A DNA stretch of 64,000 nt, taken from IMG/VR virus record IMGVR_UViG_3300028048_000120, positions 1 to 64,000 of that record, one strand, 5' to 3'. Position 1 is the first letter of the stretch; every line of letters begins with the position of its first letter. Position numbers and translations under genes: made by a program. This stretch comes from a virus (taxonomy: Duplodnaviria; Caudoviricetes). Positions 18,467 through 36,137 of this stretch are shown here, piece after piece. The notes under the pieces are model-generated. The model ran no database searches. It was not told where the DNA came from and worked only from the letters and a program-made list of their open reading frames with translations.

Positions 18467-18931
18467 ATGAGAAACCTCAAGATAGTTAAAGGAAATGATT
18501 TCAGCATCATCGTACCTCTTGCACAGGCTGTAAGAGATGAGAATGGTGTGACCTATAGCGACCTCAACCTCAGTAACCTTACAATCAACGAATTGAAATT
18601 CGTAAGCAGCTACAAAAAAAACTATGTGCCAACATGGCAAAACGGGCAAGATAACACCTCTATAAAGATTGATATACCTGGTAACTTGCTTCCTATAGGA
18701 ATGTACGATCTAGAGATTGTCGGTATCATGGGTGGAACAAAGCACGTCCGTGCATACTGTAAGAATATTCTAGGCATCGTGAATTCCTCTCAGGATAGTA
18801 ACTTGATGTCTGATACCGTCGATATGGACACCATACCTCTTCCGTCTGTTGGCCCTATCGATATGTCTGGGGTGAACTCGCTAAGAAAATATATAAACAG
18901 AATTATTGACGAGAGACTAGCACAGCAATGA
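18467..18931 (+). CDS. Tail/baseplate upper-protein-like domain (stand-alone paralog of the next gene's N-terminus)
   Basis: MRNLKIVKGNDFSIIVPLAQAVRDE nearly identical to the start of 18928..20772. Confidence 0.55.
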   Translation: MRNLKIVKGNDFSIIVPLAQAVRDENGVTYSDLNLSNLTINELKFVSSYKKNYVPTWQNGQDNTSIKIDIPGNLLPIGMYDLEIVGIMGGTKHVRAYCKNILGIVNSSQDSNLMSDTVDMDTIPLPSVGPIDMSGVNSLRKYINRIIDERLAQQ

Positions 18932-20772
18932 GAAATCTAAAGGTAGTTAAAGGAAACGACTTCAGTATTATCGTCCCTCTTGCACAAGCTGTAAGGGATG
19001 AAACAGGTGTGACCTATAGCGACCTTACGTTGGATCGTCTGAGCATATCTTCTATTAAGTTCGTCAACACCTATTCGAAGGAGTATGACTGCGTATGGCA
19101 TGCTGGCTCAGACAATATTTCCGTGAAGATAGATGTAGGAGGCAATGACCTTCCTGTAGGGAAATATGACTTAGAAATTGTAGGAGTGCTCGATGGTGAC
19201 GATATAAGAGCGACCAGCAAGAATGTGCTGTTCATCGTGAATTCATCTCAGGATAGTAACCTATTGGCAGACCCTGTGGATATGGATGCTATTCCTATAC
19301 CATCTACCGGTCCTATCGACCTTACCGGAAATAATGATATCATCAAGTATATCAATAGACTTCTTGACAGCACACTTCACAACATAGATCCATATGTAAG
19401 GGAATATTTTCTTTCCCGCTTGGAAGATGATACGGCCAATGGAGTCATTACATTTCTTAAAAAAATCTTTGCCCGTGGAGGAGCTGAATTCGGCAACTTC
19501 GTGAAAGGCCTGTATGCCGGAACTGGAGGAGCCATCGATGACAGAGGAAATGCTGAATTTGAATCATTAAGGGTAAGATCTTACCTTGAGGTACTTGAAC
19601 TTGTCGTCAATAGATTGTCAGCTTTGGAGGGTGATCAGATACTTACAGAATCTGATACCATAGAATCAGTTACCAGAAATGATGACGGAACCTATCTGCT
19701 TAAGCTAAAGGAGAAGTACGAAGGATACTTTACGGCACAGCATGTTAATAATGTCTTGAAAGGTATTATCAACACACTGCCTGCACACGCACAAGGAATA
19801 ACAGATGTTACTCGTAGCGATAGCGAACGTGAAGGAGATTCCGGAACGGCATATTACTATACATCATGGATGCTGATCAAGGCTGTGGATACCGTAAAAA
19901 ATGAGATAACGGTAGCGCTATATCCTGACGAGGAAGTACCAGCCGGAAGAAATTTCGCACCTTGCAAGGAGATGAAGATAGCAAGATGGGGAAATGCAGA
20001 TGATAGCAAACCTGAGCTACAGAGTTGTTTGTTCCTGTCATCTGGTGATGGTAAGATCATCCACCTGAAGAGAGTGAATAAGCCTATCATAGATTTCAAC
20101 AATTATGGATTCACGCTTGGTACCATCCCGGAACCACTGCAGAACCTATTGCCGAGATACGCCAATGGTGATGCCGTATACGTAGATACGGTATATGCGC
20201 AAAACTTCCAGAAGATAAACAAGCAGCATCAGCCTATCACGGAGATCGTAGACAGAGGTCAGTGGACTGCAAATCCTTCTGAACCTTATCACTTTAATGG
20301 GAAAAACTCCGGAGGGACATACGAGACTTCTACTGTGTACCACATAGGCTGCAAATGGCAATGTATCCATGAGGGAACGACAAGTGAACCGGTATGGAAC
20401 AGTACCGACTGGATTCTTATTGAGGGTAACAGCAACCTGACATTGGAATTCACGGACGAAGAAGGATACGCTATAACGTATCTAGCAGTAAGACCACAGC
20501 ATGTAGATTTTACCGTATTCGCAAAAGTCTTTCTCGGACATATAGACATAACCAGTGATATAAGAGATCAGGACGTAACATGGACCATAGACAGAGGAAC
20601 CGGTTATGAGGATATGGATAGAGCGTGGAGTATTGCTAAGAGCGGTCATAAAAGTCTGAGAATAACGAATGATGACATGCCATCCACATTTGCTGCGGGG
20701 GACAAGATCAAGATAACGTGTAGCATATTGGTACGTGATGGAAAATTTGTTACGAATGAAATTATAATATAA
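18928..20772 (+). CDS. Tail structural protein
   Basis: 614 aa; paralogous N-terminus; LSRLEDDTANGVITF and GAIDDRGNAEFESLRVR motifs typical of Bacteroides phage tail proteins. Confidence 0.6.
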   Translation: MRNLKVVKGNDFSIIVPLAQAVRDETGVTYSDLTLDRLSISSIKFVNTYSKEYDCVWHAGSDNISVKIDVGGNDLPVGKYDLEIVGVLDGDDIRATSKNVLFIVNSSQDSNLLADPVDMDAIPIPSTGPIDLTGNNDIIKYINRLLDSTLHNIDPYVREYFLSRLEDDTANGVITFLKKIFARGGAEFGNFVKGLYAGTGGAIDDRGNAEFESLRVRSYLEVLELVVNRLSALEGDQILTESDTIESVTRNDDGTYLLKLKEKYEGYFTAQHVNNVLKGIINTLPAHAQGITDVTRSDSEREGDSGTAYYYTSWMLIKAVDTVKNEITVALYPDEEVPAGRNFAPCKEMKIARWGNADDSKPELQSCLFLSSGDGKIIHLKRVNKPIIDFNNYGFTLGTIPEPLQNLLPRYANGDAVYVDTVYAQNFQKINKQHQPITEIVDRGQWTANPSEPYHFNGKNSGGTYETSTVYHIGCKWQCIHEGTTSEPVWNSTDWILIEGNSNLTLEFTDEEGYAITYLAVRPQHVDFTVFAKVFLGHIDITSDIRDQDVTWTIDRGTGYEDMDRAWSIAKSGHKSLRITNDDMPSTFAAGDKIKITCSILVRDGKFVTNEIII

Positions 20773-22190: not shown

Positions 22191-23299
22191 GCATAGTAAC
22201 GAACAAATTCTTCATCAGCGCAGTAGATGACGGAAGTACGATGACGGCTACGTTATCCAAAAATATGGCGCTATCACAATCCTATTCGCCTAATAATGGT
22301 GGAGTATGGATGCCTAACTTCACGACTGATAGTCCTATACTGACTCCATACATTCTTAAAGGAGCTACAAGAGTGCAGCCAACGACGCAGAATTGGTATT
22401 GCAATGGAATTCTTTTGGAATTCGATACTACGACAAAGAAATGTACAACACCAAGATATGTAAACGTATTTCAACTTATCACTGATGCAAACGGATACGA
22501 ATGCCTTAAAATAATTGACAACCTTGCCAAACCGGGTAACCTCGATGCGGATAGCATCATGCTGAAAGGTACAGTAGAATTTAACGGAGCACAGGTAGAA
22601 TTTGCCGTGAGAGAGACTATCATGCTGACAGAAGTACAAGGTAACGGATATTCTTCGACTTTTACTTTTAGCCCAAGCAATACGATTACTGAGCGAGGCC
22701 AGACAATAACGATAACAGGAAAGCTATATGCCAACGGAGCTGAATATACAGGAAATTATGACTGCAATTGGTATCTCAATGATTCATCAACTGTTTCCGC
22801 AACAGGAAAGACACTCACTCTACAGGAAGCCAATGTGGTGGACTATGTCGTAATAAAATGTGAATTTATAATAGTAGGTACGGAGAGAACTAAGGTGTTG
22901 ACAAGCTATACCTCTGTAGATGATGCCAGCGATAATGACCAGATGCAAGTATCGTGCAATATCAGAGGGCAGGGAACTAACAATGGTAACTCGGCAACAT
23001 TGCACGCTGATCAGATAGCTGATATTAAGTTTTGGATGGCTTACGAGACGAACAAGGCTATAGGATCGAATAATAAATTCACGACGTATTCCGTGAAATT
23101 GTTCAACACAAAGATGGAGAGCAATATCGGTGCTCAGTCAATAAACACTATCGTGCTTGGTAGTGATGGATCTGATGGCTACAAGAATGTGACAACGACA
23201 GATAGTGATACAGGTGTACCTATAGGAAGTCTATCCGTATCTTATGATAACGTGATACAATGTGGAGGTAACATAAGTGGAATTTTAAAAGCACAATAA
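22187..23299 (+). CDS. Tail-associated Ig-like/beta-rich protein
   Basis: 370 aa, Thr/Asn/Val-rich. Confidence 0.5.
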   Translation: MSIVTNKFFISAVDDGSTMTATLSKNMALSQSYSPNNGGVWMPNFTTDSPILTPYILKGATRVQPTTQNWYCNGILLEFDTTTKKCTTPRYVNVFQLITDANGYECLKIIDNLAKPGNLDADSIMLKGTVEFNGAQVEFAVRETIMLTEVQGNGYSSTFTFSPSNTITERGQTITITGKLYANGAEYTGNYDCNWYLNDSSTVSATGKTLTLQEANVVDYVVIKCEFIIVGTERTKVLTSYTSVDDASDNDQMQVSCNIRGQGTNNGNSATLHADQIADIKFWMAYETNKAIGSNNKFTTYSVKLFNTKMESNIGAQSINTIVLGSDGSDGYKNVTTTDSDTGVPIGSLSVSYDNVIQCGGNISGILKAQ

Positions 23300-25485
23300 T
23301 GAAAAAGACGGTAACAGGCACTTTCAGCGTAACGGCAGTCAAAGACGGTGCCAAAGGAGACAAAGGAGACAAGGGTGATCAAGGTATCCGTGGCTTGCAG
23401 GGCTTGCAAGGCGAGAAAGGCGACCAAGGAATCCAAGGTCCGAAGGGCGAGAAAGGCGACACTGGTGCTGCTGGTAAGGATGGCGTGAGCACCTACTTCC
23501 ATATTGCATACGCTGACAATGCAACAGGCGGAGGGTTTTCTCAGAACCCAACCGGAAAGAATTATATCGGCACGTATGTAGACCATACGGCCACGGACTC
23601 CACGAACCCCTCTGCCTACAAATGGCAGCTTGTAAAAGGTGCGCAAGGCGAGAAGGGTGACAAGGGTATTCCCGGCACGAACGGAAACGACGGAAAGACT
23701 TCATATTTGCATATTGCCTATGCTAACTCGGCAGACGGAAAGACCGGGTTCGATGTTAGCAACAGCACGGGAAAACTCTATATTGGCCAGTATGTTGATT
23801 TCACAGAATCGGATTCCAACGACCCGACGAAATACTCTTGGACGAAGATAAAGGGAGACAAAGGAGACACTCCACCAATGTATTCTTTAGAAGCATCTTC
23901 GGGAAATAATGATATTGGAAATGATTCTCATATCGCATGTAACGGGCAAATATTACAAACGGCAATCGGACGTGGACATTGGTGTTATTTCATTACAGGC
24001 GGGACTAATCCTGTCGTAGCATTCTCAAGGAATTATGATACATGGGGAACGCCATCATTGGCAACGGACTTGGCAAATTTTCTAACAGGTGACGAAGCTG
24101 CTGCGTACGCTAATGGCGTATTGGTGATTGTCGGATATGACGCAATATCGGTAAACGATGATTTACGGCAAGCATTGAGGAGCTATGGCTATGGAGGGGA
24201 AAACCTACTGTATAATGTAGGGCCAACAAGAGAATCTTTTGTCTTCATCGGACAAAAAGGTATGACAGAAGGAACTGCGTATTACAAAATGTCGAAAAAC
24301 ACGAAAGTAAGTCTTACGGCATCTGTTTCAAATGGGGTTCTTATCGGTATGGGCCATAAAGGTGACAAGGGCGATACCGGTAGCACAGGGCCTATTATGT
24401 ACAATGCAGGAACATGGTCTAGCAATACGCAGTATACCAATAACGGGAAGGCTACCCCTATGGTGATGACAGAATCCTCTAGTGGTGGTATCACCTCACG
24501 TAATTACTGGTATCTTCCTAATGTCGGATCTAGTACCAATCAAGATCCAAGAAATGGAGCACCATGGGAAGAGGTAACAGGATATGCTGCACTCTTTGCA
24601 GAAATGGCCATCATTAACGGAGGTACTCTCAATGATGCAGTGTTCAAGGACGGATGGATGTTCAGCAAGGCAGGAAGATATATGAGTAACGAAAGTTACG
24701 TCTATACAACATATAACGATACCAACTGGACGAATTTTGACCCAACTGTATATAACAGCTCGGATGAGGCTTTATGGAGGCCACTTGTAGCTATAGACTT
24801 CAGAAATGGAAAGGCTTATTATACCGATTCAATTAATGCCACAGGAGGAGAGTTTAATGGTAATTTTTCCGCTTATAGAAATCGTATCATATTAGGGAAA
24901 ATCAAAGCCAACTCTTATGCTGACTCAGATTTGTATGGGATTCGTTTCAGTGACTCTCATGAAACAGAATGTGGATCTATTGATCAATTTACAGATTCTA
25001 ATGTATCACAATGCGCTTTAACTTTAACAGCAAACGATTATTCCTCATCAAGCCCTCAGGAAATTGGCAGACTTGATATAGTACCTACAACTGGTATAGC
25101 GCACACAGCATCAGGTTCGTTTTCTCTCTTGCAGAATTGGAGTATTGGAAAATATGGAGACTGTCTCGGATTAAAATCGAGTACACTTGTAATTCGTTCT
25201 TCAGATTCCTTCGATATAACATCAGGAGATAGTGGGACATTCTACGTTTTTGACAATGACCATGATTTAACCATTAATCTTCCAGAAGAATCACTTGACG
25301 GATTCACATTTGAGTTTAAGGCAATAAATCACCCAATAAATTTGAAAGTAAAAAATAATTCACATAGAATCGTTTTCCAAGACGCAGCACATAGCAATAG
25401 AACAGAACATAGAATAGAAGATTCTGTTCCACGTAAATATATCTACGTACGAGGTAGATGGTTTGAAATGAGTTATCATCATTAA
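23299..25485 (+). CDS. Tail fibre with collagen-like repeats, two HIAYA-type repeats and an ILEI/PANDER-like domain
   Basis: Gly-X-Y runs; YFHIAYADN...KWQLVKG and YLHIAYANS...SWTKIKG repeats; RGH...YDT...VIVGYD...RESFVFIGQKG pattern. Confidence 0.75.
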   Translation: MKKTVTGTFSVTAVKDGAKGDKGDKGDQGIRGLQGLQGEKGDQGIQGPKGEKGDTGAAGKDGVSTYFHIAYADNATGGGFSQNPTGKNYIGTYVDHTATDSTNPSAYKWQLVKGAQGEKGDKGIPGTNGNDGKTSYLHIAYANSADGKTGFDVSNSTGKLYIGQYVDFTESDSNDPTKYSWTKIKGDKGDTPPMYSLEASSGNNDIGNDSHIACNGQILQTAIGRGHWCYFITGGTNPVVAFSRNYDTWGTPSLATDLANFLTGDEAAAYANGVLVIVGYDAISVNDDLRQALRSYGYGGENLLYNVGPTRESFVFIGQKGMTEGTAYYKMSKNTKVSLTASVSNGVLIGMGHKGDKGDTGSTGPIMYNAGTWSSNTQYTNNGKATPMVMTESSSGGITSRNYWYLPNVGSSTNQDPRNGAPWEEVTGYAALFAEMAIINGGTLNDAVFKDGWMFSKAGRYMSNESYVYTTYNDTNWTNFDPTVYNSSDEALWRPLVAIDFRNGKAYYTDSINATGGEFNGNFSAYRNRIILGKIKANSYADSDLYGIRFSDSHETECGSIDQFTDSNVSQCALTLTANDYSSSSPQEIGRLDIVPTTGIAHTASGSFSLLQNWSIGKYGDCLGLKSSTLVIRSSDSFDITSGDSGTFYVFDNDHDLTINLPEESLDGFTFEFKAINHPINLKVKNNSHRIVFQDAAHSNRTEHRIEDSVPRKYIYVRGRWFEMSYHH

Positions 25486-25500
25486 TTAAAAAATACAATT

Positions 25501-26058
25501 ATGACAGCAACAACGAATTTAAGTGCAGCGCTCAAGACAATAGATGCTGCAGTAGAACATAACGAGACACCTTCAGACGGCTTATATGTAGAACTTCACA
25601 ATGCTGATGGCAGTATAGCCTGCAAGAGCACCTTGACGGAGTTTCTGGCCAGTGCTGCAAAAGCTATATTATCTACCAATACGCTGTCTACAGCAACAAA
25701 GATAGCTGCTGTAGACGGAAATACATTCGGTGGAATAGACGGAAATAATCTCGCAACACTTATGGCGGGGAAATGGAAATACCTTTATTTAAATAAAGGT
25801 CAAACGTATTATCCATTAGAAAAAGGAATTTATGTATTGCATGAATTATCAAATGGAGAATATCATATATTTATTGCATCAGGATGGCTTTTTGGATCAA
25901 ATAAGATATTTGGTTCTGGAGCATATATAAGATATAGTGAGCAAGATGACAACAATAACTATGGAATGGTCATCTTGCCAGGCACAAGTGAAGATAAACG
26001 ATTAAGAATATCTGCACATATGAACACCCAATTGCAATTCAAACTTTTGGCATTCTAG
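25501..26058 (+). CDS. Tail-tip protein with switchable C-terminus (orientation 1)
   Basis: Residues HNADG...LMAGK are encoded inside the 179-bp inverted repeat. Confidence 0.7.
   Translation: MTATTNLSAALKTIDAAVEHNETPSDGLYVELHNADGSIACKSTLTEFLASAAKAILSTNTLSTATKIAAVDGNTFGGIDGNNLATLMAGKWKYLYLNKGQTYYPLEKGIYVLHELSNGEYHIFIASGWLFGSNKIFGSGAYIRYSEQDDNNNYGMVILPGTSEDKRLRISAHMNTQLQFKLLAF
25596..25774 (+). repeat. Left arm of perfect 179-bp inverted repeat
   Basis: Exact reverse complement of 26321..26499, checked base by base. Confidence 0.95.
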
Positions 26059-26499
26059 ATGATTGATAATTGTCTACATAGAATTTCAGAATTTCTTTTG
26101 TTTTCTACATTAGCAACTCCTCTATTGATGGTAAGTGATATATACAACCCTTGGAGTTGCTCTTGTATGGAAGTACTAATTATAACATAAGAACTATAAA
26201 GTATTTCCACAATGGCATAATTTTGCCCCCCATCGAACAACATCATCAGTAGCCCATACGTAGCGTTTGGTATTACAGCAGATTCTTTTCCCGGTATTCT
26301 TACGAATGTAGAAGGTTGTAATTTCCCCGCCATAAGTGTTGCGAGATTATTTCCGTCTATTCCACCGAATGTATTTCCGTCTACAGCAGCTATCTTTGTT
26401 GCTGTAGACAGCGTATTGGTAGATAATATAGCTTTTGCAGCACTGGCCAGAAACTCCGTCAAGGTGCTCTTGCAGGCTATACTGCCATCAGCATTGTGA
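26055..26499 (-). other. Silent alternative C-terminal cassette for the tail-tip gene
   Basis: Shares the repeat-encoded segment then a different C-terminus (LQPSTFVRIPGK...LSII); the listed start is a TTG just outside the repeat with no N-terminal domain. Confidence 0.7.
26321..26499 (-). repeat. Right arm of perfect 179-bp inverted repeat
   Basis: Exact reverse complement of 25596..25774. Confidence 0.95.
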
Positions 26500-26569
26500 G
26501 AAATAAGGGCCAATTATTAAAAATATTTAAAATTACCAATTAAAGAGAACAATTTACTGATATGTGATA

Positions 26570-26577
26570 TATATTTG
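26570..26577 (+). promoter_or_regulatory. -7 box (TATATTTG) for membrane protein-HTH pair
   Basis: TAnnTTTG match. Confidence 0.5.
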
Positions 26578-26621
26578 CGTATATAATAATGTGTAACTTA
26601 ATAATCAAAAAATATTTTATA

Positions 26622-27041
26622 ATGACAAGATTAAGAGATCATGAACCTACGCTCCTACAGAAAGAACGTATGAAACTGGAAACACGCTATCTTACTTTTT
26701 CGATTTCAATTTTTCACGCCATCTATGTACTCAACTTGGTATCTAACGGACTACCTCCAAGATGCCCCGATTTTGGTTCTATACTTGTGTATATGGCATT
26801 ACTTCTCATCAACATACATTTATATGATGAGAGTAAGTGCTATTACTATTGTTACTGGCATAGACACCCAATATTGTTCTCTATATATTATGAGATAACG
26901 AGGATATTATTCTCGCTTGGAATCATTAAATGGGATGTTGTAACATGGAATAGTATAGACGTTATAATGTTAGCAGCAATATACGTAACATGGGTAGTTG
27001 GATATATGGCTCATAGCCACTTAATAATCAGGATAAGATGA
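26622..27041 (+). CDS. Multi-pass membrane protein with CxxHR motif (likely start 26622)
   Basis: YYYCYWHRH motif and hydrophobic segments; counterpart of 60951..61343. Confidence 0.65.
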   Translation: MTRLRDHEPTLLQKERMKLETRYLTFSISIFHAIYVLNLVSNGLPPRCPDFGSILVYMALLLINIHLYDESKCYYYCYWHRHPILFSIYYEITRILFSLGIIKWDVVTWNSIDVIMLAAIYVTWVVGYMAHSHLIIRIR

Positions 27042-27343
27042 GTAGGAAGAGCATAGTTGTGAAGATGTTGAGAACCCTTGCTGACAATATAGAGAATGGC
27101 GAACAAAGTAAATATAATTCAAATCTTACGGATGACGAGATAGATATTCTACTGAATGATTATGCGAGAATGAATGACGAGAAATTAAACAAAGTACATG
27201 CGTGTAGGTTTTTGAACATGAGTCGTGCAACATTTGACAGACGTATAGCAGAGGGAAAGATACCGAGAGGTAAGAAAGAAGCAGGATGGAAGGAACTGTA
27301 CTGGTCTAAGCGAGAACTTGAGCAACTTATTACTCACGATTAA
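27038..27343 (+). CDS. AlpA/excisionase-like winged-HTH protein
   Basis: ACRFLNMSRATFDRRIAEGKIPRG..GWKELYW; homolog of 60597..60890. Confidence 0.75.
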   Translation: MSRKSIVVKMLRTLADNIENGEQSKYNSNLTDDEIDILLNDYARMNDEKLNKVHACRFLNMSRATFDRRIAEGKIPRGKKEAGWKELYWSKRELEQLITHD

Positions 27344-35818: not shown

Positions 35819-36137
35819 ATTTGACAAGAACGGGGAATGTTTGAATCCTGATATTATATCATCCGAGCTACAGCAGGAAGATGGAAGTAGAGTTACATGG
35901 GAAATAGAAGTTGCTGAGGCTCCTAATGGATGGGTAGCAGGAATGAAGTGGAGGAATAAGGGAGAATTTGATGTTTGGAGATATCCATGCTCTCTGAAAA
36001 ATGATAAATATCCATCTCGCCGTAAGGCTGTGATAGTGGCAGCAAGGAAACTCCTTAAAATAAAATATCTCCCTGATCATGAATGGCTAAAGAAATTAAT
36101 ATTCAAAGAGAAACAATTGAATCTGTTCGATGACTGA
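35805..36137 (+). CDS. Hypothetical protein ending in QLNLFDD (sliding-clamp-binding-like motif)
   Basis: C-terminal QLNLF matches the QL(S/D)LF beta-clamp consensus. Confidence 0.5.
   Translation: MKKYEFDKNGECLNPDIISSELQQEDGSRVTWEIEVAEAPNGWVAGMKWRNKGEFDVWRYPCSLKNDKYPSRRKAVIVAARKLLKIKYLPDHEWLKKLIFKEKQLNLFDD

Follow-up and report, generated by a model that had tools for sequence, protein, structure and literature searches.

A two-orientation cassette with perfect 179-nt coding repeats very probably switches the C-terminal domain of a putative tail protein in a BF1-TP2-like Bacteroides phage

In the C segment of phage P1 (Cin/cix) and the G segment of phage Mu (Gin/gix), a constant N-terminal coding part lies outside the invertible DNA, and alternative C-terminal parts are inverted and thereby swapped in frame. 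Both systems have an adjacent serine invertase, short cix or gix sites at the ends of the arms, and, as is typical of the Hin family, a Fis-dependent recombinational enhancer; they contain about 3 kb of unique DNA, with a second gene (U/U') in each half. The arms of the P1 C segment are 636 nt long, 98% identical, and coding, with cixL and cixR at their outer ends and cin adjacent. The sap inversion of Campylobacter fetus is recA-dependent. In Anabaena cyanophages, a segment of about 30 kb flips between repeats of 400–700 nt by a mechanism that is unresolved (bioRxiv 10.64898/2026.02.14.705889); both isomers occur in nature, no dedicated recombinase has been identified, and general recombination has been proposed. 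A survey of bacterial genomes and prophages by Milman et al. (2023, PMC9881135) recognized long repeats (at least 44 bp) as an attribute of gene-altering programmed inversions, found recombinase genes to be enriched nearby and tail-fiber genes to be enriched among the targets, and also noted invertible regions without a nearby recombinase. The Rin shufflon has 11-bp rix sites and an adjacent tyrosine recombinase (PMC6109161). In the Bifidobacterium prophages 689b-1 and Bb423phi2, a locus of about 500 bp is inverted without a flanking recombinase, and an invertase acting in trans has been proposed (Mavrich et al. 2018, PMC6109161).

The locus analyzed here lies in the first 64,000 nucleotides (the window) of the 83,743-bp IMG/VR record IMGVR_UViG_3300028048_000120. 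Its parts are as follows.

23299–25485, + strand: upstream tail-fiber gene, 728 aa, with a collagen-like repeat; context, not inverted
25501–26058, + strand: gene A, 185 aa
25501–25595, + strand: constant 5' part of gene A, codons 1–32, outside the repeat
25596–25774, no strand: left arm, encoding gene A residues 33–91
25775–26058, + strand: expressed variable half, A-type, 94 aa, WKYLYL...LLAF and stop, in gene A
26055–26320, − strand: silent variable half, A'-type, 88 aa, LQPSTF...LSII and stop, in ORF A'
26055–26513, − strand: ORF A', 152 aa (TTG start, repeat, then 88 codons)
26321–26499, no strand: right arm, inverted copy of the left arm, 179 nt
26500–26513, − strand: right flank, TTG and four codons (LALIS), leading the silent copy, without the conserved N-terminus

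The two arms (179 nt each) are 100% complementary with 546 nt between them, and self-BLAST of the whole 83,743-bp record returned them as its sole inverted repeat. An earlier note on this DNA had described this perfect repeat, and it was recovered exactly as claimed, coordinates included. The note had also placed two different C-terminal coding halves tail to tail inside it, which proved correct: the stop codons of gene A and ORF A' overlap in the palindrome CTAG, and the variable halves share no sequence similarity (BLASTP E = 7.5), on which ground their reading as diverged paralogues was rejected. Read in the frame of the arm, the A' half runs for 88 codons without a stop, a length matched in only 11 of 20,000 shuffles, and the 546-bp core has 4 and 7 stops in the two coding frames versus 9–14 in the others. 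The second half was said to have no proper start, and ORF A' indeed opens with TTG and the LALIS flank codons, not with the conserved N-terminus; the MALIS lead of the silent copy is also present in the relatives P0012 and P0005. No TAnnTTTG motif was found upstream of the silent copy on its − strand. Past either arm end there is no decayed homology, and the identity breaks off abruptly. The cassette is real and well formed.

The layout of the Hin family, a constant N-terminus outside and opposed C-terminal parts within a repeat-bounded segment, is found here, and the cassette belongs to a known kind, the in-frame tail-protein switch of the Mu/P1 type. It differs from the P1 and Mu segments in having one gene only, 546 bp of unique DNA, arms that are 100% identical, and an unrelated protein family. 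The six-frame search found no Hin-family serine invertase (Resolvase domain) beside the segment, and no 26-bp gix/cix/hix site of the Hin type (AAACCNNGGTTT, with up to two mismatches) is present in 25400–26700; nor does the cassette contain an Mpi-type site motif. The attributes listed in PMC9881135 are seen in the length of the repeat (179 bp against at least 44 bp), the distance between the coding parts (at most 2,588 bp; here the halves abut), and the asymmetry of the coding pair (185 aa full versus 152 aa partial). The inversions of that survey lie in bacterial genomes with recombinases enriched nearby, whereas this one is on a phage contig with none in view. The Bifidobacterium locus, in which related gut phages differ by the inversion of a small gene together with the 3' end of the adjoining one, likewise has dissimilar segments and lacks a flanking recombinase; the exchange there takes place at an 8-bp sequence, in contrast to the 179-nt arms here, and the host phylum and the proteins differ. 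In the Rin shufflon a short asymmetric crossover site precedes every cassette; here the arms measure 179 nt, and each holds a dyad with an asymmetric spacer (see below). No armless tyrosine invertase of the Rin type was found flanking the cassette or elsewhere in the record (PF00589). The cyanophages are alike in their long inverted repeats, in the occurrence of both isomers, and in the lack of an identified dedicated recombinase, but their flip and that of C. fetus sap move gene blocks or a promoter, whereas here the coding sequence is spliced in frame. The earlier note had set the cassette against known systems on the ground that these use short sites, which is incomplete given the 636-nt, 98% identical, coding arms of P1 with cix at their outer ends.

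Gene A starts 15 nt past the stop of the 728-aa gene, which has a Pfam Collagen match (4.9e-11), falls in PHROG host-range/adsorption and tail-fiber families (down to 3e-43), and matches anti-receptor and tail-fiber genes by tblastn. The gene A protein itself has no Pfam, PHROG, or PDB match, and a profile search for annotated relatives added nothing. A scan of 1.84 billion representatives gave three matches only, all from its own small family; the A' half has no relatives outside its own cluster in the same set, and the ESM Atlas returned unnamed clusters only. The AlphaFold models are poor (pLDDT 52.6 for gene A and 41.2 for the hybrid described below) and suggest an N-terminal helix, a hairpin, and helices followed by a β-rich C-terminal domain. 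The 32-aa N-terminus is 88–100% identical in all full-length relatives, even where the next segment is 54–61% identical. The A-type domain is 55–79% identical among strains whose arm-coded part is 95–100% identical, and the A' domain is 97–99% identical in P0012 and P0013. The GC content is 0.31 (A) and 0.35 (A') in the variable halves (GC3 0.23 and 0.27), compared with 0.44 in the constant part and 0.41–0.44 in neighboring genes, which suggests that both halves may be imported, exchangeable modules. From the position at the end of the fiber operon, the conserved N-terminus, and the hypervariable, low-GC C-terminus, we infer that the gene A product is a virion tail or receptor-recognition component. 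Its placement at the fiber tip, as in the "tail-tip protein" of the earlier note, would follow from position only. DGR-type diversification of the hypervariable A half was considered and rejected, because the record contains neither a second copy nor a template. In phage BF1-TP2 the equivalent position is occupied by the small gene gp48, which is unrelated to gene A, and BF1-TP2 has no comparable repeat.

When the cassette was flipped in silico, the frame was kept. The expressed product became a 179-aa hybrid of the constant N-terminus, the arm-coded segment, and the A' domain, in which KWKYLYL...LLAF is replaced by KLQPSTF...LSII as the earlier note had predicted, and the silent product became a 158-aa ORF of LALIS, the arm-coded segment, and the A-type domain. 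The hybrid has a counterpart in P0013 (ENA, 179 aa, two contigs, the longest of 14,134 bp), which was located in the 90% identity cluster of the silent ORF and is identical to the prediction at 175 of 179 residues. P0005 (ENA, 158 aa) is the reciprocal silent form, with MALIS, the arm, and the A-type domain. All four junction types expected from inversion are thus on record, as predicted proteins from short-read assemblies.

Left flank, arm, and A (window orientation, expressed): P0001, P0002, P0003, P0004, P0014
Right flank, arm, and A' (window orientation, silent): P0010, P0012
Left flank, arm, and A' (flipped, expressed): P0013
Right flank, arm, and A (flipped, silent): P0005

For P0002 and P0012, both in the window orientation, the longest contig is given as 9,624 bp, and the two presumably share one contig. 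The A' domains of P0013, where it is expressed, and P0012, where it is silent, differ at 1 of 88 residues, which means that phages of nearly the same sequence have the segment in opposite directions. The occurrence of both orientations in close relatives, a further attribute in PMC9881135, is accordingly seen at the protein level (P0013 and P0005 versus P0001, P0002, P0010, and P0012). The protein sequences indicate that both arrangements occur in nature, and the two-state C-terminal switch proposed in the earlier note is supported by the finding of the hybrid and its reciprocal silent form in independent assemblies. The cassette very probably flips.

The orientation calls are made at the protein level from short-read assemblies, in which a 179-nt repeat can be mis-threaded by the assembler and k-mers alone are insufficient. 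The calls could therefore be arbitrary, or the cassette itself could be a mis-join. Several relatives lie on very short contigs (552, 805, 849, and 1,402 bp), as expected where an assembly graph breaks at a repeat, and at about 36 kb the record passes from one phage to another, unrelated one (see below). However, the same architecture was seen in independent assemblies from ENA, JGI, and Logan, a mis-join would not yield two in-frame domains with overlapping stops, one of them open for 88 codons, and a foldback artefact would not contain two distinct unique halves. We regard an assembly artefact as highly improbable. The DNA of the relatives had no match in viral contigs, metagenome contigs (peptide and degenerate DNA pattern), genome contigs, or GenBank phages (megablast and tblastn), and the upstream tail gene had none in viral contigs.

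The two orientations could also be the relics of a few historical inversions between duplicated segments, frozen or slow, with the silent half a decaying spare. The family is tiny, the distant relatives P0006–P0009 have no silent partner in the protein databases, and the silent half of P0011 carries a −1 frameshift in its G6 run. Against decay, the silent half is intact and 97–99% conserved in three other records, the arms are perfect, the packing is compact with overlapping stops, and opposite orientations are found in phages that differ by the 1 of 88 residues given above. A frozen arrangement without a working switch is thus unlikely.

What is absent from the record has to be read in light of its makeup. 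Positions 1 to about 36,000 have a GC content of about 0.41 and resemble the Bacteroides phage BF1-TP2: the terminase is 37–39% identical to those of BF1-TP2, BKO1-TP3, and BS-TP4 (Bacteroides phages with genomes of 64–68 kb), and the contig opens with a truncated giant ORF that matches BF1-TP2 gp68. Positions 36,000–83,743 have a GC content of about 0.31 and are crAss-like, with their own structural genes, a 3,672-aa ORF, and 43% identity to the cr116_1 structural protein over 98% of its length. Judged from its sequence, the record combines two unrelated phages, joined at about 36 kb, and is probably a chimeric assembly. The CheckV estimate of "88% complete" is consequently misleading, and only about half of the phage that carries the cassette is present, a point to bear in mind wherever genes seem "absent." In a six-frame search of the 83.7-kb record, of which about 36 kb belongs to this phage, no match was found to Resolvase (PF00239), the large serine recombinase (PF07508), the tyrosine recombinase/phage integrase (PF00589), the IS110/Piv-type recombinase domain, RecT, ERF, AAA_24 (Sak4-type), or RecA. 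A PHROG scan of the early genes gave a repressor-like regulator, an excisionase-like HTH protein, and a DnaD-like loader, and no SSAP. A 101-aa HTH protein encoded shortly downstream of the cassette (27038–27343) was rejected as a recombinase, since its only matches, to HTH_17/HTH_8, are weak and it lacks a catalytic domain. The annotation of BF1-TP2 includes a tyrosine recombinase (gp77), a repressor, an Erf-like SSAP, NinB, and RusA, all in regions without a counterpart in the record. Absence from the record is therefore not absence from the phage, because half is missing and the recombinases of the relative lie in the part that is absent. The earlier observation that no recombinase is in view extends to all 83.7 kb, but it is weak evidence for a phage that is half present and whose relative encodes recombinases. 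With this and the long arms of P1, the arguments first made for the unusualness of the cassette are weaker than stated.

As our preferred reading, to which we give about an even chance, we propose that the cassette is flipped by homology-dependent recombination, with gene conversion between the arms. The gene A protein has three parts: the conserved N-terminus of 32 aa, the 59 aa that the repeat encodes, and a variable C-terminal domain, β-rich in the models. A second, unrelated C-terminal domain is encoded downstream on the other strand; it follows an identical copy of the 59-aa segment and has neither an N-terminus of its own nor an evident promoter. Recombination between the arms would invert the DNA between them, joining the constant N-terminus to the other domain and parking the first one. 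The exchange would depend on the 179-nt homology itself and would be performed by general recombination, either by phage functions of the Erf/NinB/RusA kind seen in the relative or by host RecA. Gene conversion accompanying the exchange would keep the arms identical, and a dedicated adjacent invertase would then be unnecessary. The switch would be expected to alter adsorption specificity, because the protein is inferred to be a virion tail or receptor-recognition component.

Several features favor this homology-driven mechanism. The arms are identical at 179 of 179 positions, synonymous sites included, compared with 98% in P1, and their identity ends abruptly. They also co-vary by strain, with Thr46 in both arms here and Ser46 in P0002 and P0012, at one amino-acid position; such co-variation needs gene conversion between the arms. 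The lack of an adjacent invertase and of a Hin-type or Mpi-type motif in the cassette points the same way, and the Erf/NinB/RusA set of BF1-TP2 indicates that this phage group carries general recombination functions of its own. On the other side, no SSAP or RecA-like gene is in the record, the half of the phage that is missing may encode an invertase, and every characterized phage tail-fiber switch is site-specific (Gin, Cin, Pin, Min, and Rin; bioRxiv 10.1101/2022.07.24.501295; PMC6109161).

The last two points, which count against the homology-driven mechanism, speak for its main rival, the same switch operated by a site-specific recombinase in trans at a short core site within or at the ends of the arms. 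The enzyme could come from the missing phage half, as a dedicated invertase or a tyrosine recombinase like BF1-TP2 gp77, or from the Bacteroidales host. As in P1, which combines long coding arms with a short cix site, the remainder of the repeat would represent a duplicated stretch of coding sequence. The Bifidobacterium phage locus without a recombinase has been attributed to a trans invertase (PMC6109161), and trans-acting invertases are abundant in Bacteroides hosts (PMC6109161, PMC9881135). A possible core site is also present in each arm.

25686–25716, no strand: dyad element GTCTACAGCA, 11 nt, TGCTGTAGAC, in the left arm; candidate core site
26379–26409, no strand: the same dyad with its spacer inverted, in the right arm

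The dyad has perfect 10-bp half-sites around an asymmetric 11-nt spacer, or alternatively a 12-7-12 arrangement with one mismatch. A dyad arm of at least 12 was attained in 2 of 2000 codon shuffles, and within the window the pattern occurs in the two arms only. It looks like a tyrosine-recombinase core site in shape, as a candidate only, and this unusual element counts against the homology-driven mechanism and for a recombinase in trans. However, no recombinase was found beside the cassette or anywhere in the 83.7 kb, and the Hin-type and Mpi-type motifs are lacking in the cassette. A crossover in the center of the arms would leave the outer half of the right arm never expressed, yet it is perfectly conserved, and site-specific exchange alone fails to explain the 100% nucleotide identity. 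We consider a recombinase in trans less likely than not. Between the alternatives offered in the earlier note, a host invertase or homologous recombination, we lean toward recombination driven by the homology of the arms.

If homology does drive the switch, a perfect coding repeat of 150–200 nt that is flipped and kept identical by phage or host general recombination would constitute a self-maintaining, enzyme-free programmed switch. The wider proposition that invertase-less gut phages run receptor-tip switches on homology alone is put forward tentatively, with somewhat less than an even chance. Switchable tail proteins let one phage genotype address two types of host surface; Bacteroidales hosts phase-vary their surfaces, and a switch on the phage side would be the counterpart. 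What is new here is the phage group, BF1-TP2-like Bacteroides phage, to which the Mu/P1 principle is extended, and the orphan protein family. With one gene, 546 bp, and perfect arms, the cassette is a convenient test case for homology alone versus a dedicated invertase.

Some smaller features of the region were noted. In the antisense direction to the coding sequence, the dyad spacer reads TATCTTTG (26391–26398, + strand; 25697–25704, − strand). This sequence fits TAnnTTTG, the −7 promoter motif of Bacteroidetes, and in either arm it faces out of the cassette. The match is possibly due to chance, with seven such motifs in 5.2 kb. A palindrome is located next to the left arm.

25781–25800, no strand: perfect 20-nt palindrome ACCTTTATTTAAATAAAGGT, 7 nt inside the inner end of the left arm

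Among palindromes without a spacer it ranks as the longest in the 83.7-kb record, the runners-up being 16 nt. Other strains do not conserve the encoded residues, and the palindrome may therefore be strain-specific. A C6/G6 run lies at 26226–26231 within the silent A' half, and P0011, a JGI relative on a 1,402-bp contig, reads as frameshifted by −1 exactly at the G6 run and terminates early. A sequencing error, decay, or slippage could account for this; slippage-type variation at polyG tracts has been reported for Campylobacter phages, as cited in PMC12247996. In the structural region of BF1-TP2 (PQ571263.1, 32639–34116), an inverted repeat of 36 nt (89% identical) brackets the annotated transposase gene gp52, and this repeat-bounded element looks like an insertion sequence. 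In the tail region of the record, direct repeats make up the 5' ends of two adjacent genes, of 154 aa and 614 aa (18467–18564 and 18928–19025, 87% over 98 nt; 18761–18861 and 19219–19319, 74% over 101 nt), which thus have an N-terminal module in common.
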